From Candidatus Nomurabacteria bacterium (GTDB taxonomy: Bacteria; Patescibacteriota; Patescibacteriia; HK-STAS-PATE-3): a stretch of 64,000 nt of DNA. The position numbers and the translations under genes are program-made. The notes under the pieces are model-generated. The model saw nothing but the letters and a program-made list of their open reading frames with translations, did not search any database and was not told the origin of the DNA. The stretch lies in the NCBI GenBank assembly GCA_023898465.1, contig CP060223.1, positions 896,001 through 960,000 on the forward strand, read 5' to 3'. Positions 31,568 through 51,753 of this stretch are shown here, piece by piece. Within the stretch, counting starts at the first letter, position 1. Each line of letters starts with the position of its first letter.

Positions 31568-31655
31568 GCTCTAGGAAAAAAAACTTTCGCCTAGCCCGTG
31601 TGAACATGGCATTCACATTGTCTTTTCTTAAAATATCTTGTATAATATTCGCGTA

Positions 31656-32537: not shown

Positions 32538-32545
32538 GGGGGAAC

Positions 32546-33940: not shown

Positions 33941-34924
33941 ATGTTACGTTTACCCTCAACTCGATTCTGGATCATCTCGGGTTTAAGCATGCTTATTGTA
34001 CTTGGCGCAGTAATACCTGCCCGAGCGGAGATCTTACCAAACTGCGAAAAAACACTTTACAAAGTTGAGCTCAATGGAGATCTCGATTGCCCAGATGGAA
34101 CAAACAATTGTATTGATCCAAATGATTACATACAAACTGTACACGGTGATATCGAACAGGTAATGGTCAACCGGAGCTGTGGTTTCAATGACTTCATTCA
34201 GCTCTTTGTGAATCTCGCAAACTGGGGCTTGGCTATTATGGGTGCCCTGGCTGTTTTCTTCTACATGTACGCGGGCTTCCAATTCTTAACTGCCGGCGGT
34301 CGGAGCGAGAATGTCGAGCAGGGTAAAAAAATTCTCTGGGGCACCACTATGGGAGTGATTATCATGCTGACTGCGTGGGCCGTTATTGGTTTCTATATTG
34401 TTGCTACAACTGGCAGTAACCAAGGCTTTGTTTTTCCTAATGATCCTAACTTCCTAGCCCCTTGGTTTGGTCAGACCGAAACTTGTCGACAGACCTATAT
34501 AAAAAATTACGACCAATCTCAGTGTGGACAAAACAATCTTCATATAAACTGTTCAGACCCGATTGATGGAAGCGATGGACCTGTTACTCGTTTGCAAAGC
34601 ATACTTACTCAGCGAGCTTGTAACCCTGGAGGAATAGACGGCTGTTTTGGTTCAAACACTGAAAGTGGGCTCCGACAATTCCAGAGAGTGAATTGGCGCA
34701 GTGGAATTATTGAAGACGGGGTAGTGAATGCCGATGATTGGAGCACCCTACTCAACACTTCTACTGCGTATGATTGTTCAGTCCCGCTAGGTTGCTGCAT
34801 CAATCCTGATGAACCGAGTCTTTGTTATGATCAAATTCCAGAGGCCTACTGTAACCAGAATGGTTGGACCTTCCTACCAGATAGCTGTGCGAGTTACGAC
34901 TTTGACTGTGAAGGACCAAGTTAA
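33941..34924 (+). CDS. T4SS-pilin-like (TrbC/VirB2-type hairpin) membrane protein fused to a Cys-rich domain and a peptidoglycan-binding-like domain
   Basis: Signal peptide (...IPARA/E). Hairpin motif YAGFQFLTAGGRSENVEQGKKILWGTTMGVIIMLTAW. C-terminal GCFGSNTESGLRQFQRVNWRSGIIEDGVVNADDWSTL resembles the PG_binding_1 pattern. Contains 20 Cys residues. Confidence 0.6.
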   Translation: MLRLPSTRFWIISGLSMLIVLGAVIPARAEILPNCEKTLYKVELNGDLDCPDGTNNCIDPNDYIQTVHGDIEQVMVNRSCGFNDFIQLFVNLANWGLAIMGALAVFFYMYAGFQFLTAGGRSENVEQGKKILWGTTMGVIIMLTAWAVIGFYIVATTGSNQGFVFPNDPNFLAPWFGQTETCRQTYIKNYDQSQCGQNNLHINCSDPIDGSDGPVTRLQSILTQRACNPGGIDGCFGSNTESGLRQFQRVNWRSGIIEDGVVNADDWSTLLNTSTAYDCSVPLGCCINPDEPSLCYDQIPEAYCNQNGWTFLPDSCASYDFDCEGPS

Positions 34925-36809: not shown

Positions 36810-38816
36810 ATGTCTAAAATACCGGATAGAACACAGGCCTGGCTGCTAGGAATGATGATCTGTATGATTGTTATCTCTTTTGCAGGTCAATACGTAAAAT
36901 GGCAAAGTCTGGCCTATAACGGACTCGATTTGGGTATTTACACTCAAGTAGTATCAGAAACCAGCCAAGGGAATTTCTTTGGCTTCACCATTCACCCGCA
37001 CTCCTACTTGGGTGACCATGTTGAATTTTTACTATTACTCCTTGTGCCTCTTTTTTGGATTGTGGCTCATCCACTCTGGCTCTTGGCCGCACAAAGCCTT
37101 GTGTTGGCTTTAGGCGCTATCCCTATATTTCGCCTTGCACGCAAAAAACTAAATGGTAACTGGGCTCTAGGTTTAAGTGCAGCCTACCTTTTTTCGCCTT
37201 TCCTCTGGAATGCAAACATGTATGAATTTCACATGTTAGCTTTTGCAATTCCAATCTTACTTGCGGCACTACAAACCTACATCACTAAATCACTCAAGTG
37301 GCATTGGCTTTGGCTGGCTTTGGCCTTGCTCGTACGAGAAGATGTTGCCTTTGTAGTATTTGGCATTGGTATTGTGGCTGCAATTGAGCGGAGGAATTGG
37401 AAATGGTGGCTACCCACCTTTTTGGTTAGCGCTGCCTGGTTTGGATGTAGTATTTATCTCGCTGGATCCTTGGGCACTTTGGGTGAATATAAATTTCTCA
37501 AATACTATGGATGGCTCGGCCCCGATCTTGTTTCTATTATCGGAAACTTTTTTGGACATCCCTGGCTCGTACTCCAACGCGTGCTTCATCCGCAAGCGCT
37601 TGCTTTCTTGCTAGGCCTAGGACTCCCTTTTGCCTATTTGCCAATCTTCCGACTTCGTTGGCTTATCCCGATCTTACCTATCTACTTACAACTTTCTCTC
37701 TCAGGAGTTGCGCGAGAAATCTCACTAGAAATGCACTACGTGAGTTTGTTCTTACCATTTCTCTGGATTGGCTCTATTGAGGCAATACACAAACTTCGTA
37801 GTGAAATGGGAAAAACTCGACGAGGAAAATTTATCCAAGAATACGCCGGGGTTATTGTTAGCGTACTCGCTGTTGTGGCAATATATTGCTTCATCGTAAT
37901 CGGTCCGATTCGCGGCCTGGCACAAACCTGGTATCGACCAGATACGCAACGTGAACATGAACAGTTAGCCAGAGATGTGCTCAACATTGTACCCGATACC
38001 ACACCTCTCGCAACTGGATATCGCTTTATTTCATGGACAGCCACTCGACCCGTGTTGTACTCCTTGCACTATCTTTTTATTGGCCGGCAACAATATAGCG
38101 ATGAAAGTTTCCCACTTGACCCTAGCATCCAAACGCTGCTCATAGACCAAAGTGATTTTGTTACCTATCAATCAGTCTATCCGGAAGATAATACCGACTA
38201 CAAAGGTGGTGCCCAGCGCTTCCGCGATCTCATTGAAGAAAGAAAGCTTCAGCTCAATCTCATGGTTGACGATCTCTTGCTCTATACAAACACCCATACT
38301 ACATCCCAAAAAGAATTAGTGCGTATTGGAAATGAAGATCAACTAAGACAAAGCCTCTTTCAGACAAGCAACGGACTCATCTTGCACTCCTGGGAGAATA
38401 ATGAAGGAATCAACAAACTTCAAAGTGAATATGTGCATATTAACACGCACAACTACCTCACCCTCCCGCTCTCGTTTATCTGGTCTCAGCATGAAATAAC
38501 AACGCGTCATAATACCGTACTACTCACACTGACTCGGGGAGACGGCGCAGTGTATCAAAAAGAATATCCCATCGCCCCGCTCTGGCCGCAATCAGAGTGG
38601 CCATTAGATACTCCAATGATTACGCAACACCAATTTCTCATCCCGACCGACTTCGCCCAAAGTGATACCCAGATAGCAATGGATGTGATGTCGATTCGGG
38701 GTCGATTAAGTTTGGATACCCAACGCTCTATCGTGCCTCGCTACGATGAACACGACTCCTTGGGCCACCTTAATCTCGGAAATCTTATTCTACCGGACGC
38801 AAGCGATACAGAGTAA
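36810..38816 (+). CDS. DUF2079-family polytopic membrane protein (putative glycosyltransferase)
   Basis: N-terminal YNGLDLGIYTQVVSETSQGNFF...HPHSYLGDHVEF pattern, about 12 TM segments, and a large C-terminal extracytoplasmic domain. Confidence 0.65.
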   Translation: MSKIPDRTQAWLLGMMICMIVISFAGQYVKWQSLAYNGLDLGIYTQVVSETSQGNFFGFTIHPHSYLGDHVEFLLLLLVPLFWIVAHPLWLLAAQSLVLALGAIPIFRLARKKLNGNWALGLSAAYLFSPFLWNANMYEFHMLAFAIPILLAALQTYITKSLKWHWLWLALALLVREDVAFVVFGIGIVAAIERRNWKWWLPTFLVSAAWFGCSIYLAGSLGTLGEYKFLKYYGWLGPDLVSIIGNFFGHPWLVLQRVLHPQALAFLLGLGLPFAYLPIFRLRWLIPILPIYLQLSLSGVAREISLEMHYVSLFLPFLWIGSIEAIHKLRSEMGKTRRGKFIQEYAGVIVSVLAVVAIYCFIVIGPIRGLAQTWYRPDTQREHEQLARDVLNIVPDTTPLATGYRFISWTATRPVLYSLHYLFIGRQQYSDESFPLDPSIQTLLIDQSDFVTYQSVYPEDNTDYKGGAQRFRDLIEERKLQLNLMVDDLLLYTNTHTTSQKELVRIGNEDQLRQSLFQTSNGLILHSWENNEGINKLQSEYVHINTHNYLTLPLSFIWSQHEITTRHNTVLLTLTRGDGAVYQKEYPIAPLWPQSEWPLDTPMITQHQFLIPTDFAQSDTQIAMDVMSIRGRLSLDTQRSIVPRYDEHDSLGHLNLGNLILPDASDTE

Positions 38817-40422
38817 GCTCGCCTGATTGGTATACTGTCTGAAGTGCAGAAATCGCGCTTGGATCAGCCACACTATTCCGCGTATCAAATTCACCCCATA
38901 GTAAATAATCCACACTCTGCTCTCGCAACCATCTTTCAAGGGCAGTATTTCCACTTTGGCGCGCTACAATAAAACCATCTGATTTGTCATTGTAATGCAA
39001 GGTTTCAATCGGGTGTCCAAATACCACTGCCCGACCCGCCCAAGCTGGTATATAGAGATTGCCAATTTTCCCAGCTGCAAAAACTGCACGAGTATCGGTG
39101 TGTGTTTTCATCCAGTCACTCATATCTTGATAAGATTGATCGACGTAGAGGTGGTATGGCGGCTGACGAAAAGTATCATTCGTCCAAAGATGTACATCCA
39201 TGCCCACTAAAGCAATCGGCGAAAGACTAAACACTACTACGGCCAGCATTGGAGTGGCTACATAGCGAGACCAGCTTACTAATGGAAATCGCTTGAATAC
39301 TATACGAAGACCAATAAAAGCAAATAAAGCTAGGGGGAGCATCCAACCTTCAGTTAGGCGGCGACTAAAACTAATCGGCAAAAAGAAAATACATGCTTGC
39401 CCAAACAACCACGCAAGCGGCATTGCGTAGGTGCTTCGATCACGACCTAGTTGAAACAAAGCAAGAAGGGCCAGCGGAATAAGAGCGCCATAGCTAATAA
39501 GTGTGGTAAAAAAGAATGGCATAGTATTCACATTCTGAGCCGCTCGGCTATTCGCAATTGGGTCAAAAAGTATTATCCCAACTTGGTAGAAAATCATTGG
39601 CAGCGCTAGTCCTCCTACAAGAAGCGCCCCCCACAAAGCCCGTGCCGTTTTATCCCGCTGCCATAAAAAAGTGAAGAGTATAAAAAGCACAAAAACCCCT
39701 ATCACTGTTGGTAAGTGAAAGGGGTGAAAGCTCATAAGTAAAAAAAGCGACAGGCCGCTTTGCAAAAAATACTGTATTTGCTTTTGCTGCACCCCGAGGT
39801 AATACCAATGAAAAATGAGAATAAGTAATGAGGTGGCTAAAATAAAATGCGGGCTCTGATACATCGTTAAAAATGTATACGCTTCACTTACCCAGAGATC
39901 CATCGGCCAAATCGCCCACTCAATAAATCCAAAAATGTATTTAATAAAAGGATATGCAATTGCTCCAAATCCTGCAGCAAAAAGAAAAAGCAAAATAGCA
40001 AATTTACGCTCACGCCATGCCGGAAGAAAATTGCGTAAGAAAATTTCGCTCGACCATAGGAGTAAGGGGATGAGGAGGATTCGGGCTAAATGAAAACTTA
40101 CTAATGCGGAAAGGTGCAGCCACTTTGCCATATATCCAACAACAATCCAGATTGGACTGAAAATAAAAGCGTCATGCGGCTCAGCAGTAAACAAATCCCT
40201 AAGCATCACCTGTCCCTGTTTTACCTGTTCTATGTAGGAAAAATAGACCGGCAAATCACCTGGAGCCAGTGTATGTCCTCCGGTAAAAATCATCCCATCT
40301 GCCTGCATCATCCACGCGTAGAGGTAAGGGAACGTTGTGAGAATAACTAAAGCGAGGGCTATCCACCAAAACCAACGACGTGGCATTTTTTCAGCATCTG
40401 GGTGAAGAGAAAAAAACTGCAT
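38785..40422 (-). CDS. polytopic membrane protein, GT-C-fold glycosyltransferase-like
   Basis: More than 10 TM segments plus a C-terminal soluble domain. Last gene of the coupled operon. Its 3' end overlaps the convergent DUF2079 gene by 32 nt. Confidence 0.45.
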   Translation of the reverse strand: MQFFSLHPDAEKMPRRWFWWIALALVILTTFPYLYAWMMQADGMIFTGGHTLAPGDLPVYFSYIEQVKQGQVMLRDLFTAEPHDAFIFSPIWIVVGYMAKWLHLSALVSFHLARILLIPLLLWSSEIFLRNFLPAWRERKFAILLFLFAAGFGAIAYPFIKYIFGFIEWAIWPMDLWVSEAYTFLTMYQSPHFILATSLLILIFHWYYLGVQQKQIQYFLQSGLSLFLLMSFHPFHLPTVIGVFVLFILFTFLWQRDKTARALWGALLVGGLALPMIFYQVGIILFDPIANSRAAQNVNTMPFFFTTLISYGALIPLALLALFQLGRDRSTYAMPLAWLFGQACIFFLPISFSRRLTEGWMLPLALFAFIGLRIVFKRFPLVSWSRYVATPMLAVVVFSLSPIALVGMDVHLWTNDTFRQPPYHLYVDQSYQDMSDWMKTHTDTRAVFAAGKIGNLYIPAWAGRAVVFGHPIETLHYNDKSDGFIVARQSGNTALERWLREQSVDYLLWGEFDTRNSVADPSAISALQTVYQSGELTLYRLRPVE

Positions 40423-41120
40423 TACTTCTGAGAGCGAAACAATAATGCAAGAATCATTTGAGCGTATTCACGAGCAATCGTGAATGAAATTTTACTCTTG
40501 CCATATTGGCGATCCTGAAAAACATAGCCGATTTCTGTGGTCTGAAGTGGACGCGCTCGAACCAAAATCTCTACTAAAAGTTTATACCCGCGCGGACGTA
40601 AAGTATGTGCAATGCGTGTATACACATCTCGTCGTACGGCAAAATATCCGCTCATAGGATCACGCTCTCGAATACCGAGCATCACCTGAGCAATCCTAGT
40701 AGCAAACCAACTCATGGCTTGGCGTCGCAGAGGCCAACCTAACATACCGCCGCCACTAACAAAGCGTGAACCGATAGCCACGTCATTACCTAACTGCACC
40801 GCCCTAATCATCTGCGGAATAATTGCCGTATCATGCGAAAGATCGGCATCCATGCAAATAAAAATTTCTGATCTGGCCTCTTCCATACCAGCCATCAGTG
40901 CAGAAGCAAGGCCTAACTTACCTGTTCGCTCAATAACCCTGACTGGATAGTGAGCAGCCAGCGAACGAACAAGCTGAGCGGTCCCATCTGGCGAAGCATC
41001 GTCAACCACAATTATCTCGACAACCAGCTGCAAGCGGGCAATCTGTCGAAGGCACGCCTCAATGTTCTCCTTTTCATTATAGGTTGGCAGGATAATGCTA
41101 GCTTTTGGCAAGGCGCTCAT
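40422..41120 (-). CDS. polyprenol-monophosphate mannose synthase (GT2, Dpm1/Ppm1-like)
   Basis: SIILPTYNEKENI...VVDDASPDGTAQLV...CMDADLSHD. Confidence 0.85.
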   Translation of the reverse strand: MSALPKASIILPTYNEKENIEACLRQIARLQLVVEIIVVDDASPDGTAQLVRSLAAHYPVRVIERTGKLGLASALMAGMEEARSEIFICMDADLSHDTAIIPQMIRAVQLGNDVAIGSRFVSGGGMLGWPLRRQAMSWFATRIAQVMLGIRERDPMSGYFAVRRDVYTRIAHTLRPRGYKLLVEILVRARPLQTTEIGYVFQDRQYGKSKISFTIAREYAQMILALLFRSQK

Positions 41121-42406
41121 GAAGATACGGATTTGGACTGATCGCTCGACCCTGATGAAGTATAAGGCAGGGCTGCTAATAGGAAAACAAGCGCGAGGTA
41201 ACCCAGGTGTGTGTCATTAAAATACCGGGCAAAAAACCAAAAAACAAGCAGGGTAAATCCATAGTACCAGAAGATATTTTGCAGGGAAATGTCTAGTCGA
41301 CTCTTCCTCAATAAAAGGAGAAAACTCGGGATTCCAATGCAGAGAGAAAAAACCCAAAATGGGAAATGTCCGTAGGGATCAATAACATGAAAAGTTGCCA
41401 TCCACTGGGCAATACCTAAACCTGATGCTGGATAACTCAACTCAGCGCTGCCGTTTGCATACTTCCAAACGTCATCATAAAAAGCTCCTGGCGACCAGAG
41501 AAAGAAAAAACCCATAACCACAATAAGGAGAAGTAGCGAAGGAAATAATGGACGATATACTTGCCGCCAAGGACCTGGTTTCCGGCGCTGCCATACTGCT
41601 ACGAGGTAAAATGGCACAAAGAGCCAGGCGGACTGCTTCATCAGTAAAGCAAAAACCAGAGCAAATCCCGAGCTCGTGTATCTGCCTCGATAAAGCGCTA
41701 GGGCTGCGAGGAAGAGGAAAAGCAATACGGTGATGTCATTCAACCCAGCCACAATAAACTTCAACATAAATGGATTCAACGCAGTAAGGATAATTGCTAG
41801 ATCTCTCCAAGGAGCTTGCACGGTTTTTGCTAAGAGTAAGAGGAAGGCAATCCAAAAAAGTAAGTACAGCGCACGTACATCAAACCAACCAGTAAATCGC
41901 TCTAGGCTCCATTGCCACGGCGCCACGATAAGGAAAGAGCCTGGTAAATACACATAGTGCTCCCAGGCTGGATTGGGTCGCGTGCTATCAGAAAAACGAT
42001 CAGGGAACACACCAAAAGCTGTACCACGATAATCACTCGCATAAGGATTTTTACCCTGTAGGAGAAAATGACTCGCTTCCTCAGTCTGGATTGCACCATC
42101 GTGCACATATGCTTCTAGTGGACGATAAGGTCGTACCAGCATCTGCAAGGTACAGACGGTCACTAGGATGCCTATGCTTAAGATAAGGACGATCCTTGTT
42201 CGCATCTCATCTGCTGATGGGGCAAAGATAAGACTTAATCCATACGCAAACACCAGCAACAAAGGCAGGATGCCAAACCAGAAAAGTGGTGTGGGGGAAA
42301 AGAAATAACTAAAGGCCTGCTGACCTGAAAAAACCTCGGCCATCACATAAAGCACGAGGAGAAGAATGAGAACAAAAGTAAAACGTCGAATCGTGATTCC
42401 GTTCAT
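41117..42406 (-). CDS. polytopic membrane glycosyltransferase, GT87/DUF2029-like
   Basis: Loop motif HDGAIQTEEASHFLLQGKNPYASDY, many TM segments, and an ATGA overlap with the next gene. Confidence 0.55.
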   Translation of the reverse strand: MNGITIRRFTFVLILLLVLYVMAEVFSGQQAFSYFFSPTPLFWFGILPLLLVFAYGLSLIFAPSADEMRTRIVLILSIGILVTVCTLQMLVRPYRPLEAYVHDGAIQTEEASHFLLQGKNPYASDYRGTAFGVFPDRFSDSTRPNPAWEHYVYLPGSFLIVAPWQWSLERFTGWFDVRALYLLFWIAFLLLLAKTVQAPWRDLAIILTALNPFMLKFIVAGLNDITVLLFLFLAALALYRGRYTSSGFALVFALLMKQSAWLFVPFYLVAVWQRRKPGPWRQVYRPLFPSLLLLIVVMGFFFLWSPGAFYDDVWKYANGSAELSYPASGLGIAQWMATFHVIDPYGHFPFWVFSLCIGIPSFLLLLRKSRLDISLQNIFWYYGFTLLVFWFFARYFNDTHLGYLALVFLLAALPYTSSGSSDQSKSVSS

Positions 42407-44041
42407 TTACGGAGCAACTGCATAAATCTTAGCCTCCTTGTCTTCGTAGACCAGTGAGACCCCCTCTGTACCATCTACTAAACGATCCATAGCTACATGA
42501 TCTTTAGTAACAACTACGTACGATGCATGAAAAGTATCACGTAGAGTGGTACTCACCGTGCTCGGATCTGACTTCCCGGTGGTTAAATCAACCCAAGCCC
42601 AATAGCGATCTTCATCGTGGGCATACAAAAAGGTTGGATCTAAACCAGCAATATAGCGATGTGATGGATCATAGTAAAAAAGGAGTGGAAACTCATCCCA
42701 GTCACTATGTACGACAATCTCGTCTGATGGGGCATTTGCTTTTAACCAAGTGCCAACACCAGACAGGGTTGAGGCATCTTGCCCACCCGCTAGGTCGCGT
42801 CGCACATTTCGCAAGTCACGTACACCCACGCCAACCACTCCTATAACAACATAGGCGAGGATTATCACTGCGACCGTTTTTGAAAGGACGCTATGACGCC
42901 ACCCGGCCACAACATCTCGCAAAAGCGCTTTACCTGCCTTACCAGAGAGTGCGTCGCTGATGGAAAAAGCTCCAAACAACATACCAATCGGCACATAGTA
43001 TTCAACGTAGCGCTTGGACTTCAGGGTAAGCAGGAAAAAGAAAATGGTTAGCAAGAAGAGGGTCCAGGAGCGGACAGACTGCTTTCGTAATTGCAGAGCC
43101 ATACCGAATATCCCTAACACCACCACAATAGAAACAAAGATGGTGGTAGGAATAAGCTCACCGATGTGATACGGATACCACTCTCCGCCTACGCCAATGC
43201 TATGTTGCGCATTAATAATGCCAATCTTAAAAAGCTGGTATTCGTAAAATCGAATGTTGTGCGGGAAGCTAGGATTAAGCAATAGACCTGCCAGCATCCC
43301 ACCCCCAACCGCCAAACCTATGGTGATGTAAAGACGCCAAGAAGCTTCATGGTGTCGCCAACGATCATACTGCTCATGCAGACGAGTAAGGAGAGAACGA
43401 GAATCACTCTGATGGAGTATCCAATAACGGACTAAGCCCACCAGGCAAAACACCGCTGTACAAACAAGCAGCAGGGAAAATCCGCCGTATACCCAAACAA
43501 AAATCCATGAGTACACAAAAGCCCACTTTGCTCGGAAGTGAAACACCAACCATAAACCAGCCAAAAGAAGTGTCACTCCCAGAACAGGCGCTTTTGGTAA
43601 ACCCATCCGAAACATGAATGGATTCACAAACAAAAGCAACAAGGTAAATACAAATGCCCATCGCACTTGGAAGGAACGAAGGAGGCCATAGAACATGCCA
43701 GCCATCACTGCAGTGAGTAAAATAGTGGCGACTTTTATCCCGACCAGTGGATCAGCTATAGAAACAAACGGGATGAGAATAACGTGATAAAGAAAATGCT
43801 GATTAATGTAATTCTCACTCAGGGATGTAAAAGGCAGCCAGGGAAACTGCGTAAAAAAACCTTTGTCAGCTACCAGGGTTGCCATCCGAGCATGATAAAA
43901 AGAATCAGGATCAGCAAAAGCATCATGCAATTGCAAATACGATGCAATGACCAGGGCAATCATCATGATAAGCAGACCGGTCAGAAAGGGCGTCCGGCAA
44001 AAGATACGATAGATTTTATACCACCAAGCCTCCTTTTCCAT
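42407..44041 (-). CDS. polytopic GT-C membrane glycosyltransferase (PMT/ArnT-like or STT3/AglB-like)
   Basis: First-loop motif ADPDSFYHARMATLVADKG. Later motifs GGEWYPYHIGEL and VVHSDWDEFPLLFYYDPSHRYIAGLDP. About 13 TM segments and a short C-terminal soluble domain. Confidence 0.5.
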   Translation of the reverse strand: MEKEAWWYKIYRIFCRTPFLTGLLIMMIALVIASYLQLHDAFADPDSFYHARMATLVADKGFFTQFPWLPFTSLSENYINQHFLYHVILIPFVSIADPLVGIKVATILLTAVMAGMFYGLLRSFQVRWAFVFTLLLLFVNPFMFRMGLPKAPVLGVTLLLAGLWLVFHFRAKWAFVYSWIFVWVYGGFSLLLVCTAVFCLVGLVRYWILHQSDSRSLLTRLHEQYDRWRHHEASWRLYITIGLAVGGGMLAGLLLNPSFPHNIRFYEYQLFKIGIINAQHSIGVGGEWYPYHIGELIPTTIFVSIVVVLGIFGMALQLRKQSVRSWTLFLLTIFFFLLTLKSKRYVEYYVPIGMLFGAFSISDALSGKAGKALLRDVVAGWRHSVLSKTVAVIILAYVVIGVVGVGVRDLRNVRRDLAGGQDASTLSGVGTWLKANAPSDEIVVHSDWDEFPLLFYYDPSHRYIAGLDPTFLYAHDEDRYWAWVDLTTGKSDPSTVSTTLRDTFHASYVVVTKDHVAMDRLVDGTEGVSLVYEDKEAKIYAVAP

Positions 44042-44094: not shown

Positions 44095-45147
44095 TTACTT
44101 CAGCTGCGCTTTGAAATAATCCACCCAAGGAATCGGCGATGGATCTATGTCATGCTCCATAGCGAGCCAGAAGCTGAGATAGCCACTAAAGGTGAGGTGT
44201 AAAACTATCTCTTCTAAGCGCGACTGAGCAGAAACCTTCACATCATCAACGCTAAAGTGCTGTCGTTGAAAAACCTTTTTACTAATACCGTAACGTTTTT
44301 CATTTCGAGCATGTAAAAACTTTGAACGAAGCATGAGTACATGCAGGGCTACTTTAGGATGCGCTAAGCCCTCCATGAGGTGGTGATTTAATCCTGGGAT
44401 AGGGAAATGTAGCGCAAAATGCTTACTGTTTTCATGGAAGCGATTTCGATAGGCCAGGGCTACATTTTCTAAGTGCTCGCTCCCCACAATAAGCGGGATG
44501 CGAGTGCACAACTTCTTGGCTAACTGCAGAGTAGTATTTCGTTGTTGAGGCGCCTGCACTGACCATTGTTTACCAGCTCGTCGAGCCTTCTCTATTGCGC
44601 GATGTAATTCTGGAGTAGATACACGTAGCTGCCCAGCAGCCGCAAGTAGCCCCATAATACCAAAAAGCATGTATCCAGTACCCATGCGAGGTTGCTGGGA
44701 TGGATTATACCGTGCATCAAAAATATAGGCGGGAATTTTCCATTGCGTAGCCAACTTGGCCAATGTCCCACCCGAGGAAATAACCATGAGTTTGGCGCCA
44801 CGTTGTCGAGCCTGACGAAGCGCGCTCACACTTTCTTCCGTACCGCCTGAATAACTTGAGGCGATTACGAGAGTATCAGGACCAACATAGGCTGGAATAT
44901 CGTACTGCTCTATTACCTCAAAAGTCGCTTTTGATGAGGGACGCAAAAAATCCGCTGCGATCCGAGCTGGAAATGCAGAGCCACCCATACCAGCCACCAC
45001 AATTTTTTTCACTGCACGATAACTAGCAGGCACAGCTATGCGTGAGGATTCGTCCCAGGCTTGTGCAATCTGATCAGGAAAAGCATCGAGCGAACTTAAC
45101 ATTTGTTGCTTATCAAGTCTTTGGACTTTTTGTTGTAGTGTCATCAT
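44095..45147 (-). CDS. bifunctional phosphoglucose/phosphomannose isomerase (SIS domain)
   Basis: KKIVVAGMGGSAFPARIAADFL, SYSGGTEE, and a C-terminal region typical of the bifunctional PGI/PMI family. Confidence 0.8.
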   Translation of the reverse strand: MMTLQQKVQRLDKQQMLSSLDAFPDQIAQAWDESSRIAVPASYRAVKKIVVAGMGGSAFPARIAADFLRPSSKATFEVIEQYDIPAYVGPDTLVIASSYSGGTEESVSALRQARQRGAKLMVISSGGTLAKLATQWKIPAYIFDARYNPSQQPRMGTGYMLFGIMGLLAAAGQLRVSTPELHRAIEKARRAGKQWSVQAPQQRNTTLQLAKKLCTRIPLIVGSEHLENVALAYRNRFHENSKHFALHFPIPGLNHHLMEGLAHPKVALHVLMLRSKFLHARNEKRYGISKKVFQRQHFSVDDVKVSAQSRLEEIVLHLTFSGYLSFWLAMEHDIDPSPIPWVDYFKAQLK

Positions 45148-45193
45148 GCATTAAATAGTATCAGTCTTTATGGGCAAAGAAAAGGAAAGTATA

Positions 45194-45222
45194 TTGACCG
45201 TTCGGCTTTTTTTTGGTATAGT
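45194..45222 (+). promoter_or_regulatory. candidate promoter of yebC-ruvC and downstream genes
   Basis: TTGACC-17 nt-TATAGT. Confidence 0.55.
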
Positions 45223-45283
45223 AATAGCAAGGAACTCACGGGGAGATGGCGCTTTTAGTGATGAAGTCTCCGCTCATCAAGCT

Positions 45284-46006
45284 ATGTCCGGACATTCCAA
45301 GTGGTCACAAATTAAACGACAAAAAGGTGCGGCGGATGTAAAACGCAGCAGTCTTTTTACTAAACTCGCTAATAATATTGCGGTAGCTGCCAGAGATGGA
45401 AAAGATCCTGACATGAATTTTCGTCTCCGTTTAGCTATAGATCGTGCTCGAGCCGCCAATATGCCCAATGACAATATTGACCGAGCAGTGAAACGGGGTG
45501 CTGGTGAACTTGAAGGACAGATTATTGAGGAGATCACCTACGAAGCCTATGGCCCGGGTGGCGCTGCACTCGTTATACGCGTGCTCAGTGATAATAAGAA
45601 TCGAAGCGCAAGCGAGGTACGGACGACGCTCAATAAATACAATGGCAATTTGGGAGCAGCAGGAAGTGTGGTATGGAACTTCACGCTCAAAGGCGTCATC
45701 CGCGTCGAACAAGAGCATGTGCAGGAAAAAGATATCGACACCTTAAGCCTAGAACTCGTTGATGCAGGAGCGGAGGATATAGCTCAATCTGAAGAGGGAC
45801 TAACAATCTTCACCGCCGTGTCAGGTCTGGCTGAAGTACAAAGTGCACTTCACAAACAAAATATCGCAATTGCCGAAGCTGGACTCGAATATGTGCCAAA
45901 CACTACTGTAGCGCTAGATGAAAAAGCTTCTGGACAAATGCACACCTTAATTGACGCTCTTGAAGAGCTTGATGACGTTGACGCCGTCTTCACCAATGCC
46001 CAATAA
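45284..46006 (+). CDS. yebC: YebC/PmpR-family DNA-binding regulator
   Basis: MSGHSKWSQIKRQKGAADVKRSSLFTKL N-terminus. Confidence 0.9.
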   Translation: MSGHSKWSQIKRQKGAADVKRSSLFTKLANNIAVAARDGKDPDMNFRLRLAIDRARAANMPNDNIDRAVKRGAGELEGQIIEEITYEAYGPGGAALVIRVLSDNKNRSASEVRTTLNKYNGNLGAAGSVVWNFTLKGVIRVEQEHVQEKDIDTLSLELVDAGAEDIAQSEEGLTIFTAVSGLAEVQSALHKQNIAIAEAGLEYVPNTTVALDEKASGQMHTLIDALEELDDVDAVFTNAQ

Positions 46007-46487
46007 GTCACGTCGCATTCTCGGAATTGACCCTGGCTATGGACGACTCGGTTACGGAGTGCTGGAGGAAAAAGATCGGACGCTCCACTGTGAAAGCTAC
46101 GGCTGCATCGAAACACCGGCGAAAGAAGAAGCACCAGTCCGGCTAGCTAAGATTGCCCAAGAGCTACGCAGCATTTTACAACGCTATCAACCTGACCTCA
46201 TCGCAGTAGAAAAACTTTTCTTTGCAAAAAACACCAAGACAGCCCTCGGGGTAAGTGAAGCACGGGGAGTAGTACTCCTGATTGCACAAGAATACGGTGC
46301 AGAAATACAAGAATTTACACCAGTAGAAGTAAAACTAGCCTTAACCGGCTACGGACAAGCAAATAAAGATCAAGTACAGCAGATGGTAGAACGCCTCCTC
46401 AAAGTAGAGGAAAAAATCGCCAGCGATGATGCGGCAGACGCACTGGCAATCGCCATCTGTGCCGCCCACACAAAAATACCTACATGA
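45996..46487 (+). CDS. ruvC: crossover junction endodeoxyribonuclease RuvC
   Basis: RILGIDPGYGRLGYGVLE...AVEKLFFAKN...DAADALAIAICA. Confidence 0.9.
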   Translation: MPNKSRRILGIDPGYGRLGYGVLEEKDRTLHCESYGCIETPAKEEAPVRLAKIAQELRSILQRYQPDLIAVEKLFFAKNTKTALGVSEARGVVLLIAQEYGAEIQEFTPVEVKLALTGYGQANKDQVQQMVERLLKVEEKIASDDAADALAIAICAAHTKIPT

Positions 46488-47539
46488 GTTCGATGAAACA
46501 ACAAAGTGAACAGCTCATTCATGCCACCGAGCGAATCTTTCGTGAATGTGTGCAGACAAATGGGGCTATCACTATCTCTCCTGATAGTAAACTGGTAATA
46601 CCTCATCACGCTGCTTTTGTTACTGTGGCAGCACCTTTTGTTGGTTTAGAGCTTGCTCCAGAATTTTTTGCTTGGGTTAAAAAAACTCTAGAGAATGAGG
46701 AGAATAACGGAGCCTTAAGTAATGCCTATGATTGGGAGGGAAAAGCAACCCATTCGCCAGCCCGATTTGCACCCGAACAAAACGGCGCCATGCTCTGGAG
46801 TATTGATGCCTATATTGAACGACATCCAGAGGAGCTGGCTCATATGAAGGAATTAGTAAGCCTGCTCGTGCAAGGAATTACTCAGCACTGGAAAAAAAAT
46901 GGATTTTCGCGTACTACTAATGAGGTATGGGGGGAACATCATCACATAGGAGCGCCTGAGATGAATCAGCGCTTTACATATGCCCTAGCCGCCTGTGCAC
47001 ATGGGCTTGAACGTGCGGCCGCTCGCTATAAGCAACGGCGATGGAAAGCTATTGCCGGGCAAATGCGTGAGCATATAAATAATGCCTGGGATGAAAACAA
47101 AAAGACTTTTCATCGCGCGCTTGGTAAACATAATGATACAAGCATTGATAGTCTAACTCTCGGACTTTGCTGGCCTTATCATATTTACGAGGCAAAAGAG
47201 AAACGCATGCAGGCAGCTGTCGAACGCATTGAAGAGGTGCTTATTGATGGTGGTGGAGTGCACCGCTTCCAATATGATTACCACGACAGCGAAGGGGATG
47301 CAGAAGATGGTGGTGGTATTTGGCCAGCTCTTAATTTTTGGATGAGCATCTATTTTGTTGAACAAGGCGATGAGGCAAAGGCGCGGGCTTACTTCCAATG
47401 GGTATTAGAACGCGTGCATGAAGAACTCCCAGAACAAATGTTTAAAGATTTTCGTATCGGCATTACTCCTTTTGCCTGGAGTCACGCACTCTTTCTCTTG
47501 GCTGCTCATAGTTTAAAACTTCTCCCAAATGAAGCGTAA
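46484..47539 (+). CDS. glycoside hydrolase family 15-like (short alpha/alpha-barrel, glucoamylase-related)
   Basis: FTYALAACAHGLERAA..., GGIWPALNFWMSIYFVEQGDEAKARAYFQWVLE, and FAWSHALFL. Confidence 0.55.
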   Translation: MSSMKQQSEQLIHATERIFRECVQTNGAITISPDSKLVIPHHAAFVTVAAPFVGLELAPEFFAWVKKTLENEENNGALSNAYDWEGKATHSPARFAPEQNGAMLWSIDAYIERHPEELAHMKELVSLLVQGITQHWKKNGFSRTTNEVWGEHHHIGAPEMNQRFTYALAACAHGLERAAARYKQRRWKAIAGQMREHINNAWDENKKTFHRALGKHNDTSIDSLTLGLCWPYHIYEAKEKRMQAAVERIEEVLIDGGGVHRFQYDYHDSEGDAEDGGGIWPALNFWMSIYFVEQGDEAKARAYFQWVLERVHEELPEQMFKDFRIGITPFAWSHALFLLAAHSLKLLPNEA

Positions 47540-49004
47540 ACTTCGCATCATGAACGTAGCTGCAGAAGTGGCTCCCTATGCCAAAACCGGGGGCCTGGCT
47601 GACGTAGTACATGCGCTACCAAAAGAATTAGTACACCAGGGCCATAGCGTCAGTATTATCATGCCCTGCTACGGCTTCATGAAAAAGCAAAATATTCCCA
47701 TGACTGAGGTGGATCGCTTCCGCATTAGTGTGGGGAGTAAAAACTTTGGAGCGACTATCTATCAAACTGAATTTTCACCAGGCTTAACAATCTACTTTGT
47801 TGCCAATCACGAACTCTTTGGTCGTTCGCGACTCTATGGCTACCCAAACGACAACACTCGCTTCATGTTCTTTTGTAAGGCCGTTGTACGCTTTATTAAA
47901 GAAATGAATAACCGGCCTCATGTCGTTCACTGCCATGATTGGCACACCGGGTTAATACCAAACTACCTCAAGCAAAAATTTAATCACGACCCATCTCTCC
48001 GCTCAATCGCAACACTCTACACGATTCACAACCTACCTTTCCAATTCGGATCAGACTGGTGGAAGGTGCCGCCAAAGCAGCAAGATGACGGACGCGGCGT
48101 ACCCCCTGAAACACCGACGAAGAAGTTGAATCGAGTAAACTTTGCCAAACGCGCCTTACTCAACGCCGACATCATCAACACGGTAAGTGAGCGCTATGCT
48201 GAAGAAATCCTCACCCCAGAATTTGGCCAAGACCTTGATGGAATACTCCGACGTCGAGAAGAAGATGTCTACGGCATTGTAAATGGCATTGACTACACCG
48301 TATATAATCCGGTGTATGATAAAAACATCCCGGTAAACTACGACTGGAACCAGCTCGATAAAAAACAGCTCAACAAAAACGCCTTGCAGCGTAAGGTTGG
48401 CCTAGAGCAAAAAGCTGATATCCCGCTCATCGGGGTAGTGAATCGCTTAAGTGAGCAAAAGGGATTTAACCTGCTACGTGAAATTGCCTACGTGCTCGTG
48501 AAGCTGCCTCTGCAGCTCGTTATTGTGGGAAGTGGACATCCGGATTATGTGCGCTTCTTTAAGCGCTTAGCAAAAAAATATCCTAAGCGGATTGGCTTTT
48601 ACTCTCCTTTTACCGAGGAGCTCGCTTCGCTTACCTATGCTGGCTCTGACATGTTCCTCATGCCCTCGCGCTATGAGCCATGTGGAATTTCCCAAATGAT
48701 CAGTTTACGATACGGCTCTATTCCGATTGTCCGAGAAACAGGCGGGCTCTCTGACACTATTACCAATTTCAATCCAAAGACGCAAAAAGGTATTGGCTTT
48801 GTATTTTCTGGATATACCAAGGAAGATTTTCTCATCGCTATTGTCCGAGCCCTCGAAACCTATCGCTATGCACAGGTCTGGGAACACCTCACCTGGCGAG
48901 CTATGAAAACGTCATACTCATGGGAGGTGCCAGCAAAAAAATATGCGCAGTTATATCGCTTAGCTTATCGACATAAACGGGCACGAAAGAAGGGGACAAC
49001 ATAA
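47529..49004 (+). CDS. glgA: glycogen/starch synthase (GT5), copy 1
   Basis: MNVAAEVAPYAKTGGLADVVHALPKEL, HCHDWHTGL, and PSRYEPCGISQM. Confidence 0.9.
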   Translation: MKRKLRIMNVAAEVAPYAKTGGLADVVHALPKELVHQGHSVSIIMPCYGFMKKQNIPMTEVDRFRISVGSKNFGATIYQTEFSPGLTIYFVANHELFGRSRLYGYPNDNTRFMFFCKAVVRFIKEMNNRPHVVHCHDWHTGLIPNYLKQKFNHDPSLRSIATLYTIHNLPFQFGSDWWKVPPKQQDDGRGVPPETPTKKLNRVNFAKRALLNADIINTVSERYAEEILTPEFGQDLDGILRRREEDVYGIVNGIDYTVYNPVYDKNIPVNYDWNQLDKKQLNKNALQRKVGLEQKADIPLIGVVNRLSEQKGFNLLREIAYVLVKLPLQLVIVGSGHPDYVRFFKRLAKKYPKRIGFYSPFTEELASLTYAGSDMFLMPSRYEPCGISQMISLRYGSIPIVRETGGLSDTITNFNPKTQKGIGFVFSGYTKEDFLIAIVRALETYRYAQVWEHLTWRAMKTSYSWEVPAKKYAQLYRLAYRHKRARKKGTT

Positions 49005-50248
49005 TGCGCTGGGCCGCCCTCCTACATATTTATCAACCTCCGCACTGGGATGCTCGCGTCATTGCTAAAGTAGTGAGTGAAAGCTATCGACCTTTAGTGG
49101 ATATTTTAACGCGAAATCCCAAGATTAAGATTACGCTAAACATCAACGCCTCGTTGACTGAGCAACTTGCTCGACATGGCTACCTCGATGTTATTGATGG
49201 ATTACGCAGCTTGGCTGAACGAGGACAAATTGAATTTACTGGCAGCGCAAAATACCACCCGATTTTACCCCTCCTGCCAGCTGATGAGGTACGTCGTCAA
49301 ATCCGCCTCAACACTGAAACAAACCGAGCTCTCTTTGGTGATATTTATCGCCCACGAGGATTTTTCCCGCCTGAGATGGCAGTCGATCTCGACCTCATCC
49401 GCATCTTAGTGGAAATGGGATTTGAATGGGTAGCAGTTGACGAATTAGCCGGTGAGAAAAAACTTGGCGATCTTCCTTTAAATAAAAAATATTTAGTTGA
49501 GCCTTTTGATATCTCTCTGGTTCTACGCAATCGTTTCATGAGCGACTATCTGGCCTTTGCGGCTCCAATTGATAAGCCAGGTGAATTTTTTGCTGAGGTA
49601 GAAAAAGAAAAACGCTCAAAGGAAATTCTCATCACTGCAATGGATGGAGAAAACCTTGGCCACCACCGTCCAGGCACTGAACGACTATGGGAGGAGTTAG
49701 TAACAAATCCTTCAGTCGAAATGGTCACCTTCACTGAAGCGCTGGAAGGTTTTAGCACGCAGGAAAAACTCATGGTGCAGGAAAGCAGTTGGTCGACTCG
49801 AGCAATTGATCGAGTCCGCAATGCACCTTATCCGCTTTGGCAGCATCCGGAAAATCAACTTCATCAACTACAGTGGTCGCTCACCACGCTCATCATCGAA
49901 GCGATTAACCAAGCAGAGAAGCGAAGTGACCACACCATTGAACAAGCTCGGATTGCTTTAGACGAGGCGCTGTCTTCTGATCAATACTGGTGGGCCTCAG
50001 CCACGCCCTGGTGGAGTGTGGAGATTATTAATGAAGGAGCCGAGCGACTTGGTAAAGTGTTAGAAGCGCTCAGTGAAGTGCCGCCCGCTACGCAGAAAGA
50101 AGCGCGACAGCTCATTCGCTCAATTCGAGAAACTTCACGTCGCTGGCAGGACAAAGGAGTTGCTTCTCAGCGTATGGCTGAATACAACAAAGAAACAAAG
50201 CAAGTACATTACATGGCTGGACAACGCATTGACGGTTCTGCCAAGTGA
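49004..50248 (+). CDS. glycoside hydrolase family 57 protein, copy 1
   Basis: LHIYQPP, GQIEFTGS, FFPPEMAV, AMDGENLGHHRPG, and SSDQYWWAS correspond to the five GH57 conserved regions. Confidence 0.8.
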   Translation: MRWAALLHIYQPPHWDARVIAKVVSESYRPLVDILTRNPKIKITLNINASLTEQLARHGYLDVIDGLRSLAERGQIEFTGSAKYHPILPLLPADEVRRQIRLNTETNRALFGDIYRPRGFFPPEMAVDLDLIRILVEMGFEWVAVDELAGEKKLGDLPLNKKYLVEPFDISLVLRNRFMSDYLAFAAPIDKPGEFFAEVEKEKRSKEILITAMDGENLGHHRPGTERLWEELVTNPSVEMVTFTEALEGFSTQEKLMVQESSWSTRAIDRVRNAPYPLWQHPENQLHQLQWSLTTLIIEAINQAEKRSDHTIEQARIALDEALSSDQYWWASATPWWSVEIINEGAERLGKVLEALSEVPPATQKEARQLIRSIRETSRRWQDKGVASQRMAEYNKETKQVHYMAGQRIDGSAK

Positions 50249-50304
50249 TTGTACGGTAGGTGCGCATAGAACTTTCATTAGACAATTAATTCCTTAGAAA
50301 AAAC

Positions 50305-51675
50305 ATGTATTGGGCAAATTTCCTGCATATTTATCAACCACCAACCCAAAAACCATATTGGGTGAAGCGAGTCACTGAAGAGTCGTATCGAAAAATCGTT
50401 GCTGAATTAAAGCGCGCTCCGGGTGCTAAACTCACTCTGAACATTAGCGCGGTGCTTGTTGAATTGCTGGATAAGAATGGATGTGGAGATGTTATTGATG
50501 ACATTCGTCTCTTGCTCGAGCGTGGACAAATTGAATTAACCAGCTCAGCAAAGTTTCATCCATTACTACCAAAGATTCCCAAGGATGAAGTTATTCGACA
50601 AATCCAACTGAACGACGAAACGCATCGTAAATATTTTGGTGAACTCTACAAGCCGAAGGGATTTTTCCCACCTGAGATGGCCTTCTCTACCGATGTGGCA
50701 AAGATCGTAAAAGAGCTGGGCTATGAATGGATCATTGTTGATGAATTATCCTTCTCTCGCGAAATCGGCAATATTGATTACAGCAAGCGCTACACGGTTG
50801 AGGGTCTGGATGATTTTTCCATCTACTTCCGTGAACGGCGCATGAGCTACAAAATCCTTTCCGGACAATTAGGATCCGGCTCGCTTCTTATTCAGAGCCT
50901 GGGTGATCGATTAAAGAAAAATGAATACCTCCTAACTGCAATGGATGGAGAAACTTTCGGCCACCACCGTCCAGGTATGGAGCACCTCCTTTTTGAGATT
51001 TACGAATCAAAGGAACTCGAAACTATCCTTATCTCGGATATCCCAAAACACTTCCCAGAGTCCACGCCGATTGATCCTTTGCCATCCACTTGGGCGCTGA
51101 TGGAAAAAGACCTTGAAAAGAATGCGCCGTTTTCTCGCTGGCTTGATCCAGGTAACACAATTCATGAACGACAATGGGAATTAACCAACCTGGCGATTAA
51201 GGCGGTACATGCAAGCGATCAAAGCGATCCAAAATTTCCTGAGGTGCGGACAGCGCTTGATCGAGCAATTCACTCAGATCAATACTGGTGGGCCTCGGCA
51301 AAACCATGGTGGAGTATGGAAATGATTGAGGCAGGCGCTAAGGAGCTGTCTGATGTGGTATTAAACGCGCCAGGCTCAAGTGAAGAGGAGAAGGAACGAG
51401 CGAAACAGCTCTACCAAGAAATTATCTATACCGGCTTTGACTGGCAGCGATCTGGTTTAGTGGAAAAGCTTTCCCAGCAAGAGGATGAGGAAATACGACA
51501 GCGAACTGATGAAGCTATTCCTGAATTACCTGCTGAAGAAATTGATAAAATTATTGCGAACTTGCGCAAAGATATCGATGATGTGGTGAAGCGAGAAGAA
51601 TACGAGCGAGCAGCTCAATTGCGCAATCGCATTAAAGAACTCGAGCAATATCGAGACAAAAAAAGTAAAGAATAA
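50305..51675 (+). CDS. glycoside hydrolase family 57 protein, copy 2, with C-terminal UVR motif
   Basis: LHIYQPP, GQIELTSS, FFPPEMAF, AMDGETFGHHRPG, and HSDQYWWAS. The tail is IDKIIANLRKDIDDVVKREEYERAAQLRNRIKELE. Confidence 0.8.
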   Translation: MYWANFLHIYQPPTQKPYWVKRVTEESYRKIVAELKRAPGAKLTLNISAVLVELLDKNGCGDVIDDIRLLLERGQIELTSSAKFHPLLPKIPKDEVIRQIQLNDETHRKYFGELYKPKGFFPPEMAFSTDVAKIVKELGYEWIIVDELSFSREIGNIDYSKRYTVEGLDDFSIYFRERRMSYKILSGQLGSGSLLIQSLGDRLKKNEYLLTAMDGETFGHHRPGMEHLLFEIYESKELETILISDIPKHFPESTPIDPLPSTWALMEKDLEKNAPFSRWLDPGNTIHERQWELTNLAIKAVHASDQSDPKFPEVRTALDRAIHSDQYWWASAKPWWSMEMIEAGAKELSDVVLNAPGSSEEEKERAKQLYQEIIYTGFDWQRSGLVEKLSQQEDEEIRQRTDEAIPELPAEEIDKIIANLRKDIDDVVKREEYERAAQLRNRIKELEQYRDKKSKE

Positions 51676-51699
51676 GCAGGTTCTTATATAGAATACGTG

Positions 51700-51727
51700 C
51701 AGCGCGTCCAAATGGGCGCGCTGTTTG
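51700..51727 (+). terminator. rho-independent terminator
   Basis: 10-bp stem cagcgcgtcc/gggcgcgctg, 4-nt loop, then tttg. Confidence 0.6.
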
Positions 51728-51753
51728 TAAAAAAATGCTACAATAAGTGAAGC

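Follow-up and report, generated by a model that had tools for sequence, protein, structure and literature searches.

A putative AglB-related family of GT-C_A membrane glycosyltransferases in Patescibacteria

Glycosyltransferases of the GT-C type use lipid-phosphate-linked donors at the extracytoplasmic face of the membrane and possess a catalytic Asp/Glu in their first external loop (EL1). The closest known system to the protein described here is archaeal AglB, a catalytic subunit of the oligosaccharyltransferase (OST) type, represented by Archaeoglobus fulgidus AglB-S1/S2 (3vgp, 3vu0) and AglB-L (3waj, 5gmy, 7e9s). The protein in question is encoded on a 64,000-nucleotide stretch of the genome of a Candidatus Nomurabacteria bacterium (assembly GCA_023898465.1, contig CP060223.1, positions 896,001 to 960,000), hereafter the window, to which coordinates refer unless a related locus is named. 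Its open reading frame (ORF; 42407..44041, minus strand, ATG start) codes for 544 aa identical to H6760_04695, a protein of a 'Candidatus Nomurabacteria' metagenome-assembled genome (MAG) annotated as hypothetical, and this name is used below. It is predicted to be a GT-C_A membrane glycosyltransferase with approximately 11 transmembrane (TM) helices and a C-terminal extracytoplasmic alpha/beta domain. The best explanation, with a probability of roughly 0.55 for the statement as a whole, is that it is an AglB-derived enzyme which takes a hexose (probably mannose) carried on polyprenyl phosphate and transfers it to an acceptor outside the cytoplasm, that its family is evolutionarily related to the OST catalytic subunit AglB/STT3 without being a canonical OST, and that, for annotation, it is the founding member of a large family of minimal GT-C_A membrane glycosyltransferases, with an extracytoplasmic domain of 125 aa, lacking a Pfam entry.

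Relationship to AglB and other GT-C enzymes

In both H6760_04695 and AglB, a helix with W-[LM]-K-x-N is followed by a strand whose last residue is S, then by a W-D turn and a further helix. They also share an acidic EL1 residue, a Glu on the long external loop and, at the outer turn that comes next, an Arg. There is also profile-level similarity between them via a paralog of H6760_04695, TM545. The protein differs from AglB, however, in having no STT3 Pfam match and approximately 11 predicted TM helices rather than the 13 of OST catalytic subunits (PMC8342417), and its 544 aa contrast with the 706-875 residues of the full-length OST chains matched in the PDB. The Asp/His metal ligands of the second external loop (EL2) are replaced by Arg145/Lys150 and SWWDYG by S-D-W-D-E-F, while neither a TIXE tripeptide nor a DK motif is recognisable. 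Also unlike AglB, the protein is accompanied by one to three paralogs in a polyprenyl-phosphate-mannose context.

An AlphaFold2 model of H6760_04695 (59 sequences; predicted local distance difference test 93.5, predicted template modelling score 0.91) was compared to the PDB using Foldseek. The top matches were yeast and human STT3 (E-values 3e-9 to 4e-8, template modelling score [TM-score] 0.62-0.65), followed by PglB (7e-8), DPY19 (5e-7) and ALG12 (3e-6), with AftD (1e-5), ArnT (2e-4) and PMT (2.5e-2) further down. Taken together, the STT3/PglB (GT66) matches range from 3e-9 to 7e-8 with TM-scores of 0.56-0.65, and the fold neighbours of the model are AglB/STT3, then DPY19, AftA, ALG12, PglB and ArnT. 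The Foldseek ranking identifies the protein as a GT-C_A enzyme with OST catalytic subunits as its closest solved relatives, and a C-terminal structural unit of the AglB 'central core' (CC) type is present in the model (residues 419-544; 42410..42787, minus strand). The features of the GT-C_A class are likewise predicted, these being an N-in polytopic arrangement, an acidic residue in the first external loop, a long external loop and an extracytoplasmic active site. It should be mentioned that, as judged from the model, PMT and DPY19 resemble the TM core almost as closely as the OSTs do and the fold of the C-terminal alpha/beta domain is not exclusive to OSTs.

The paralog TM545 (38785..40422, minus strand) is a membrane protein of 545 aa with the same architecture, encoded by the third gene after that of H6760_04695; its NCBI start lies 12 codons further in (533 aa). 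In hhalign the two proteins align with Prob 97.2% (E 3e-11) over their full length and 94.4% over the C-terminal domain. The TM545 family (26 members) corresponds to no Pfam family, and a search with its profile for a bridge to annotated families gave 24 matches, all hypothetical and with no Pfam domains. When the same profile was run with hmmsearch against the whole PDB, the only glycosyltransferase matches were 3vu0 (C-domain of AfAglB-S2, E 0.14) and 2lgz (C-domain of yeast STT3, E 0.46), both to the same region. Against three A. fulgidus CC fragments recovered from PDB alignments, the TM545 C-domain gave Prob 92.4% in hhalign (E 5e-7, 75 columns), with 0.3% for the reversed control and at most 0.8% for twenty column-shuffled controls, and against the single AglB-S2 sequence it gave 88%. 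Comparison of this domain to E. coli ArnT, full-length or C-terminal, gave at most 0.9%, and no comparison of H6760_04695 or its paralog to ArnT exceeded 2.5%. The two significant steps, from H6760_04695 to TM545 and from TM545 to the AglB CC, tie the C-terminal domain of H6760_04695, together with its modelled structure, to the AglB central-core unit, to which it is judged to be homologous on these profile and model grounds. TM545 itself has S-x4-G-N in place of SWWDYG and retains the acidic EL2-like residues D175 and E180.

No match to H6760_04695 was found in Pfam or NCBIfam at E<=1, and 59 family members gave no match to STT3 (PF02516), PMT, PMT_2 or Dpy19 in Pfam at E<=10. Six of these 59 have a weak match to PF24661 (DUF7649; best E 3e-4). 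Searches of all PDB sequences with phmmer (H6760_04695) and with hmmsearch (family profile) returned spurious matches only. The OST queries were checked: Campylobacter jejuni PglB shares 99% identity with its database protein and scored 886 bits in comparison with C. lari PglB (5ogl), and yeast STT3 is 100% identical to 6c26_A over 431 residues. With OST profiles made from a 19-sequence Campylobacter PglB alignment and from yeast and C. thermophilum STT3 (residues 1-431), hhalign of the family against either was not significant (Prob <=6%), the PglB profile being shallow since the homolog search gave only close Campylobacter sequences. The sole local PglB match, weak but recurring in three runs, places residues 292-364 on PglB 321-393, with K-S-K-R344-Y-V-E-Y-Y-V-P over L-R375-F-T-I-Y-A-V-P. 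A gapless backward extension of this weak alignment brings E287 opposite the TIXE Glu.

In addition to lacking the EL2 DXD, H6760_04695 differs from STT3/PglB in the absence of the WWDYG, DGGK/DNNTWNNT and MI/DK motifs and of extra peripheral domains; its K-S-R-R-Y-x-E-Y-x-P resembles the PglB segment L-R-F-T-I-Y-A-V-P. With DPY19 and PMT it shares a likely donor class, polyprenyl-phosphate-mannose, and basic residues in the absence of a DXD-metal site near the phosphate, but there is no Pfam match and no sequence-level link to either. PMT aligns over the TM core only (329 residues) and carries MIR domains and a D-E motif. The mycobacterial arabinofuranosyltransferases AftD/AftA and ArnT are much larger and carry extra carbohydrate-binding modules; AftD and ArnT also score lower over the full length, and ArnT is without profile similarity. 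The sequence-only reading, which had first drawn attention to this ORF, considered a PMT/ArnT-type enzyme equally possible, a view which finds no support from any profile. In the hidden Markov model comparison that it proposed, of STT3 (PF02516) versus PMT/PMT_2/ArnT, the family matches neither side. For PMT/PMT_2 (GT39; PF02366, PF13231, PF16192) there is no profile match, no D-E motif in loop 1 and no MIR domain, for ArnT (GT83) there is neither profile similarity nor the best structural match, and for DPY19 (GT98, PF10034) there is no profile match.

Three-component systems such as GtrA/GtrB/GtrC, CsbB/GtcA/YfhO and AglD/AglR/AglS are comparable in organization, with a GT2 polyprenyl-phosphate-sugar synthase, a flippase (GtrA-like in one related locus, see below) and an outside-acting GT-C. 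H6760_04695 differs in falling outside the GtrC, YfhO and PMT_2 families and in belonging to a cluster with several GT-Cs. In Haloferax, AglD, a GT2 resembling dolichyl-phosphate-mannose (Dol-P-Man) synthase, and AglS, a Dol-P-Man-dependent GT-C, are combined with AglB.

Conserved motifs and membrane topology

Conservation was counted over 71 homologs from GTDB genomes with 35-59% identity to H6760_04695. Residues present in all 71 are D44, P45, D46, Y49, H50, H82, Y85, H86, F144, R145, L148, K150, E287, W288, R344, E347, P351, W448, D449, P452, G466, L467, D468, T470 and F471. As conserved features the motifs exceed chance expectation by a wide margin, and the invariance of these motif residues indicates strong purifying selection on the family.

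The string ADPDSFYHAR, which had been noted in the first loop, occupies residues 43-52, with DPD seven residues past TM1 and in the first external loop. Its core D44-P-D46-S-F-Y49-H50-A-R52 (43886..43912, minus strand) forms the EL1 motif, which matches yeast STT3 D47-P-W-F-N-Y-R-A without gaps as D-P-x-x-x-Y-[RH]-A and is presumed to be the equivalent of the first 'DXD', acting as catalytic acid/base. EL1 ends in an interfacial helix with H82-F-L-Y85-H86 (43784..43798, minus strand), whose invariant His/Tyr residues are possibly donor or metal ligands. At the outer end of TM3 lies F144-R145-x-x-L148-x-K150 (43592..43612, minus strand). There is no conserved acidic or His residue in EL2 (residues 124-151), and the position of the second DXD of OSTs is taken by R145/K150, presumed to bind phosphate.

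The late-loop string GGEWYPYHIGEL (residues 285-296) was also found as described, its GGEWYPY ending the last long external loop (residues 255-292), in which an amphipathic helix (261-276) precedes I-G-V-G-G-E287-W-Y-P-Y (43169..43198, minus strand). While E287 is invariant, the loop has no TIXE tripeptide and no T-I-x or S-V-S; the residue is a candidate equivalent of the TIXE/SVSE Glu, as suggested by the weak local PglB alignment and by spacing. The outer turn between TM9 and TM10 carries K341-S-K/R-R344-Y-V-E347-Y-Y-V-P351 (42989..43021, minus strand), at the site of which TM545 has F-Q-R-R-L-T-E. The distance from E287 to R344 is 57 residues, compared to 56 in PglB and 54 in yeast STT3.

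In the C-terminal domain, VVHSDWDEFPLLFYYDPSHRYIAGLDP (residues 443-469) is present as the sequence-only reading had it, although not just after the last TM helix, as the W-D lies approximately 27 residues past it (H385-418, DSSP). The observation that the W-D of WWDYG is kept with the other positions changed holds, the family consensus being H-S-[DS]-W-D-[ED]-F-P, and the S preceding it in AglB SWWDYG is kept also. The motif H445-S-D-W448-D449-E-F-P452 (42686..42709, minus strand) forms a strand-to-helix turn at the position of AglB S-W-W-D-Y-G, of which only S, W and D remain. A low-stringency alignment to the AglB CC, itself not significant, places S446-D447-W448-D449-E450-F451 opposite S-W-W-D-Y-G, in the same register as had been proposed. 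Two shared letters would be trivial by chance, and what gives the W-D match meaning is its position and invariance. Following the second strand, roughly where OSTs carry the DGGK/DNXTZNX[T/S] motif, the strand end instead reads invariant G466-L-D468-P-T470-F471 (42629..42646, minus strand), an equivalence suggested by positional comparison with PglB. The kinked helix of OSTs carries a DK or MI motif (PMC3703281), and H515-x-x-M518 (42488..42499, minus strand; helix 516-522; H in 66 and M in 58 of the 71 homologs) is a possible, uncertain counterpart.

The approximately 11 TM spans were assigned by combining hydropathy and the positive-inside rule with DSSP of the model; K+R per residue is 0.17-0.33 in the inner loops and 0.03-0.07 in the long outer loops. 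Checked by this rule, EL1, the E287 loop, K341/R344 and the C-terminal domain all lie outside. Treating H83-95 as a TM helix would make R145/K150 cytoplasmic. This alternative topology was rejected because the K/R-rich loop 212-234 would then lie outside and the E287 loop inside, in conflict with both the positive-inside rule and the logic of GT-C enzymes.

Gene neighbourhood and family distribution

The gene of H6760_04695 is the first GT-C gene of an operon on the minus strand with the order phosphoglucose/phosphomannose isomerase (PMI/PGI), H6760_04695, GT87-like protein, GT2, TM545. The bifunctional PMI/PGI (44095..45147) is co-directional and lies upstream, 53 nt before the start of H6760_04695. 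No nucleotide separates the TAA of H6760_04695 from the ATG of the gene after it, and the subsequent junctions are overlaps of 4 nt and 1 nt. This next gene (41117..42406) codes for TM429, a GT87-like GT-C membrane protein of 429 aa with no Pfam match of its own, which aligns in hhalign (Prob 99.3%) with a cluster from related loci that matches Pfam GT87. Members of GT87 are PimE-type polyprenyl-phosphate-mannose mannosyltransferases. The GT2 (40422..41120; 232 aa, Pfam Glycos_transf_2 1e-34) resembles polyprenyl-phosphate mannose/hexose synthases and has the catalytic domain only; its best PDB match is the Pyrococcus furiosus Dol-P-Man synthase 5mlz (E 2.2e-50), with ArnC and GtrB far weaker. 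A convergent DUF2079 membrane protein of 668 aa (36810..38816, plus strand; Pfam 1.3e-58) forms a conserved boundary of the cluster. Its weak hhalign similarity to the N-terminal halves of H6760_04695 and TM545 (44-47%) suggests that it may be another GT-C.

The gene order is conserved in 80 related Patescibacteria loci (referred to below by L numbers). PMI/PGI lies directly upstream of the H6760_04695 homolog in 59 of these, TM545 occurs in 55 as one to three tandem copies and DUF2079 in 46, while TM429 is present in 26 and GT87-like genes in a further 29. In this conserved surface-glycoconjugate pathway, H6760_04695 is invariant, present as a single copy and the first of the GT-Cs, and the GT87-like, TM545 and DUF2079 proteins vary in number. 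No phosphoglycosyltransferase or Wzx-type genes for lipid-linked oligosaccharide (LLO) assembly were seen in the cluster.

Other genes adjoin the homologs in particular loci. In L025 there is a GtrA flippase-like gene, and PMT_2 and YfhO-like GT-Cs are among the immediate neighbours in some loci. A glycerophosphodiester phosphodiesterase (GDPD) gene follows the homolog in L065 (11586-12461), and one family member, P0216 (786 aa), has a GDPD domain fused at its extracytoplasmic C-terminus. LtaS-like genes (TM plus sulfatase domain) follow the homolog in the Buchananbacteria-type loci L064 (11548-13692), L072 and L077. The GDPD and LtaS-like neighbours hint at a glycerophosphate-containing acceptor or polymer. 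A class I S-adenosylmethionine-dependent methyltransferase (approximately 205-218 aa, two sequence types) is encoded immediately downstream in at least ten loci (L004, L010, L011, L017, L020, L035, L038, L040, L047 and L056), with none in this window.

On the other side of PMI/PGI, a divergent block (45170-55128, plus strand) codes for YebC, RuvC, two GT5 starch/glycogen synthases, two GH57 proteins, an APH-like kinase and a GalT/HIT-like protein, along with an unannotated ORF of 351 aa with no Pfam match (46484-47539). The synteny of this alpha-glucan metabolism cluster (YebC, RuvC, GlgA, GH57) with the GT-C cluster is kept across most of the 80 loci. Beyond the DUF2079 end, small pilin-like proteins of approximately 137 aa are found in related loci (139 ORFs in 41 loci), and in the window a protein with a T4SS-pilin domain and a peptidoglycan-binding domain is encoded at 33941-34924 (plus strand). 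A solute-binding protein and a GalU-like nucleotidyltransferase come after the cluster in related loci and likewise here (31638-33937).

H6760_04695 has hundreds of homologs, all unnamed, in Patescibacteria including Kerfeld-, Falkow-, Buchanan- and Peregrinibacteria. Among 1.84 billion cluster representatives searched with the profile, 3400 clusters matched at E<=1e-3 and 1352 of these at E<=1e-30. With each GTDB species represented by a single genome, 281 genomes contained relatives. So far, the family has been seen only in Patescibacteria-type genomes. In one genome the gene is duplicated in tandem (L044, 8461-9969 and 9932-11470). Many records labelled 'uncultured Gammaproteobacteria bacterium isolate binchicken_...' (L002, L024, L028, L030, L037 and others) are MAGs with the Patescibacteria-type synteny YebC-RuvC-GlgA-GH57 / PMI-H6760_04695 homolog-GT-Cs, and their label is probably a placeholder or an error. 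In literature searches on the Candidate Phyla Radiation (CPR)/Patescibacteria with OST, STT3, GT-C or mannosyltransferase, neither this family nor OST-like enzymes in CPR were found described. The sole relevant remark is in a Peregrinibacteria genome paper, where many genes are annotated as Dol-P-mannosyltransferase (PMC4736985). This AglB-related GT-C_A family is uncharacterised, spans the lineage and has a motif set of its own.

Possible function and biological significance

In the mechanism proposed, the upstream phosphomannose isomerase would feed the GDP-mannose supply of the Dol-P-Man-synthase-like GT2, which would make the polyprenyl-phosphate-mannose donor. H6760_04695, on the outer face of the membrane, would take a hexose, most probably mannose, from this donor and pass it, with inversion, to an acceptor on the extracytoplasmic side. 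The EL1 residues D44/D46 may serve as catalytic base and acceptor-activating pair, with E287 on the mobile long loop closing the active site. R145/K150 of EL2 and K341/R344 would hold the lipid phosphate directly, replacing the DXD-bound divalent cation of OSTs, and the surface of the C-terminal domain formed by S-D-W-D-E-F and GLDPTF may position the acceptor. For H6760_04695, we infer all of these steps, from donor and catalysis to phosphate binding and acceptor. With respect to the acceptor, a protein or peptide and a membrane-anchored glycolipid or teichoic-acid-like polymer appear roughly equally likely: a peptide is favoured by AglB descent and the retained W-D, a glycolipid or teichoic-acid-like polymer by the company of GT87, LtaS-like and GDPD genes and by the differing numbers of accessory GT-Cs.

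Several points weigh against this explanation. The equivalences of E287 with TIXE, R344 with R375 and W-D with WWD are suggested by weak local alignments, spacing and position. The direct profile comparison of H6760_04695 to OSTs is not significant, including that of its C-domain to the AglB CC fragments (hhalign Prob 1.6%). PMI/PGI may simply be the only glycolytic isomerase of the cell, the GT2 is within 10 kb in only 36 of the 80 loci, and both the polyprenyl-phosphate-mannose donor and the acceptor class are predictions. Furthermore, euryarchaeal AglBs use monophosphate donors yet keep the metal site, so the missing EL2 DXD is not in itself sufficient to rule out OST-type chemistry.

The sequence-only reading had raised the possibility of an OST homolog, and this stands in part. 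A profile chain via TM545, the EL1 motif shared with STT3 (D-P-x-x-x-Y-[RH]-A) and the OST-like spacing of the invariant E287 and R344 all agree with it, as do AglB/STT3 being the best structural neighbours, the C-domain best matching the AglB-S2 CC unit and the gene being single-copy, invariant and first in its cluster, as would be expected for a final transferase. From these it might be argued that the protein is a bona fide OST, a minimal bacterial AglB/STT3 homolog that glycosylates secreted proteins, on Asn or another residue, by en-bloc transfer of a lipid-linked glycan, and in which the divergent S-D-W-D-E-F pocket replaces WWDYG and alters sequon recognition. This is considered improbable, given that the metal site (now R145/K150) and the sequon-binding motifs (full WWDYG, DGGK) are gone and LLO-assembly genes were not seen. 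The lack of a PF02516 match in the 59 members, the lack of a significant direct hhalign match, the approximately 11 predicted TM helices, the absence of a WWD motif from the paralogs altogether and the neighbouring polyprenyl-monophosphate-sugar enzymes, in place of a PglB-type context of undecaprenyl-diphosphate-oligosaccharide, also speak against it. About the same low credence is given to a variant in which H6760_04695 and TM545 are a Patescibacteria-specific, AglB-derived radiation forming an unrecognised bacterial protein-glycosylation machinery, with H6760_04695 as a minimal OST without a metal site that reads a determinant other than N-X-S/T via S-D-W-D-E-F. The GT87-like protein and the paralogous GT-Cs would then build or extend the glycan on the outer face from polyprenyl-phosphate-mannose, like the ALG steps in the lumen of the endoplasmic reticulum or AglS of Haloferax.

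An AglB-derived monosaccharide transferase must also be weighed against a protein O- or C-mannosyltransferase of PMT/DPY19 type, adding a single mannose from polyprenyl-phosphate-mannose to Ser/Thr or Trp of unfolded secreted proteins, which the GT87-like protein would extend. Metal-independent Dol-P-Man enzymes have basic residues in place of the metal site, as is found here, the operon contains a GT2 resembling Dol-P-Man synthase and a PMI, and the pairing of Ppm1 with Pmt in actinobacteria provides a precedent. This possibility is nevertheless doubtful, as PMT, PMT_2 and Dpy19 of Pfam are all without a match, loop 1 has no D-E dipeptide, there is no MIR domain and the sequence-level link goes to AglB rather than to PMT or ArnT, while in some lineages the presence of GDPD and LtaS-like genes nearby points to acceptors other than proteins. 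It is very improbable that the protein is a divergent member of the ArnT/PMT_2 (GT83/GT39) clan that acts on a lipid (for example on a head group of lipid A-like or glycolipid type), its likeness to OSTs being generic to GT-C_A. True PMT_2 genes do occur in some related clusters, but a PMT_2 Pfam match is absent at E<=10, and the hhalign values for H6760_04695 or its paralog against E. coli ArnT (<=2.5%) contrast with the 88-92% of the paralog against the AglB CC.

Patescibacteria are ultra-small and mostly episymbiotic, with a surface that mediates attachment to the host, and to our knowledge there is almost no experimental knowledge of their cell-surface glycoconjugates. H6760_04695 marks a deeply conserved, GT-C-rich cluster which takes up a notable share of a genome of approximately 1 Mb. 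As a relative of AglB/STT3 without sequon- and metal-binding motifs, it offers a testable entry into CPR envelope biology, and as a very small OST-like scaffold it lends itself to structural and mechanistic comparison. With this family, the known sequence space of bacterial members of the OST lineage reaches further than PglB. If H6760_04695 does glycosylate proteins, it would represent a new bacterial protein-glycosylation system.

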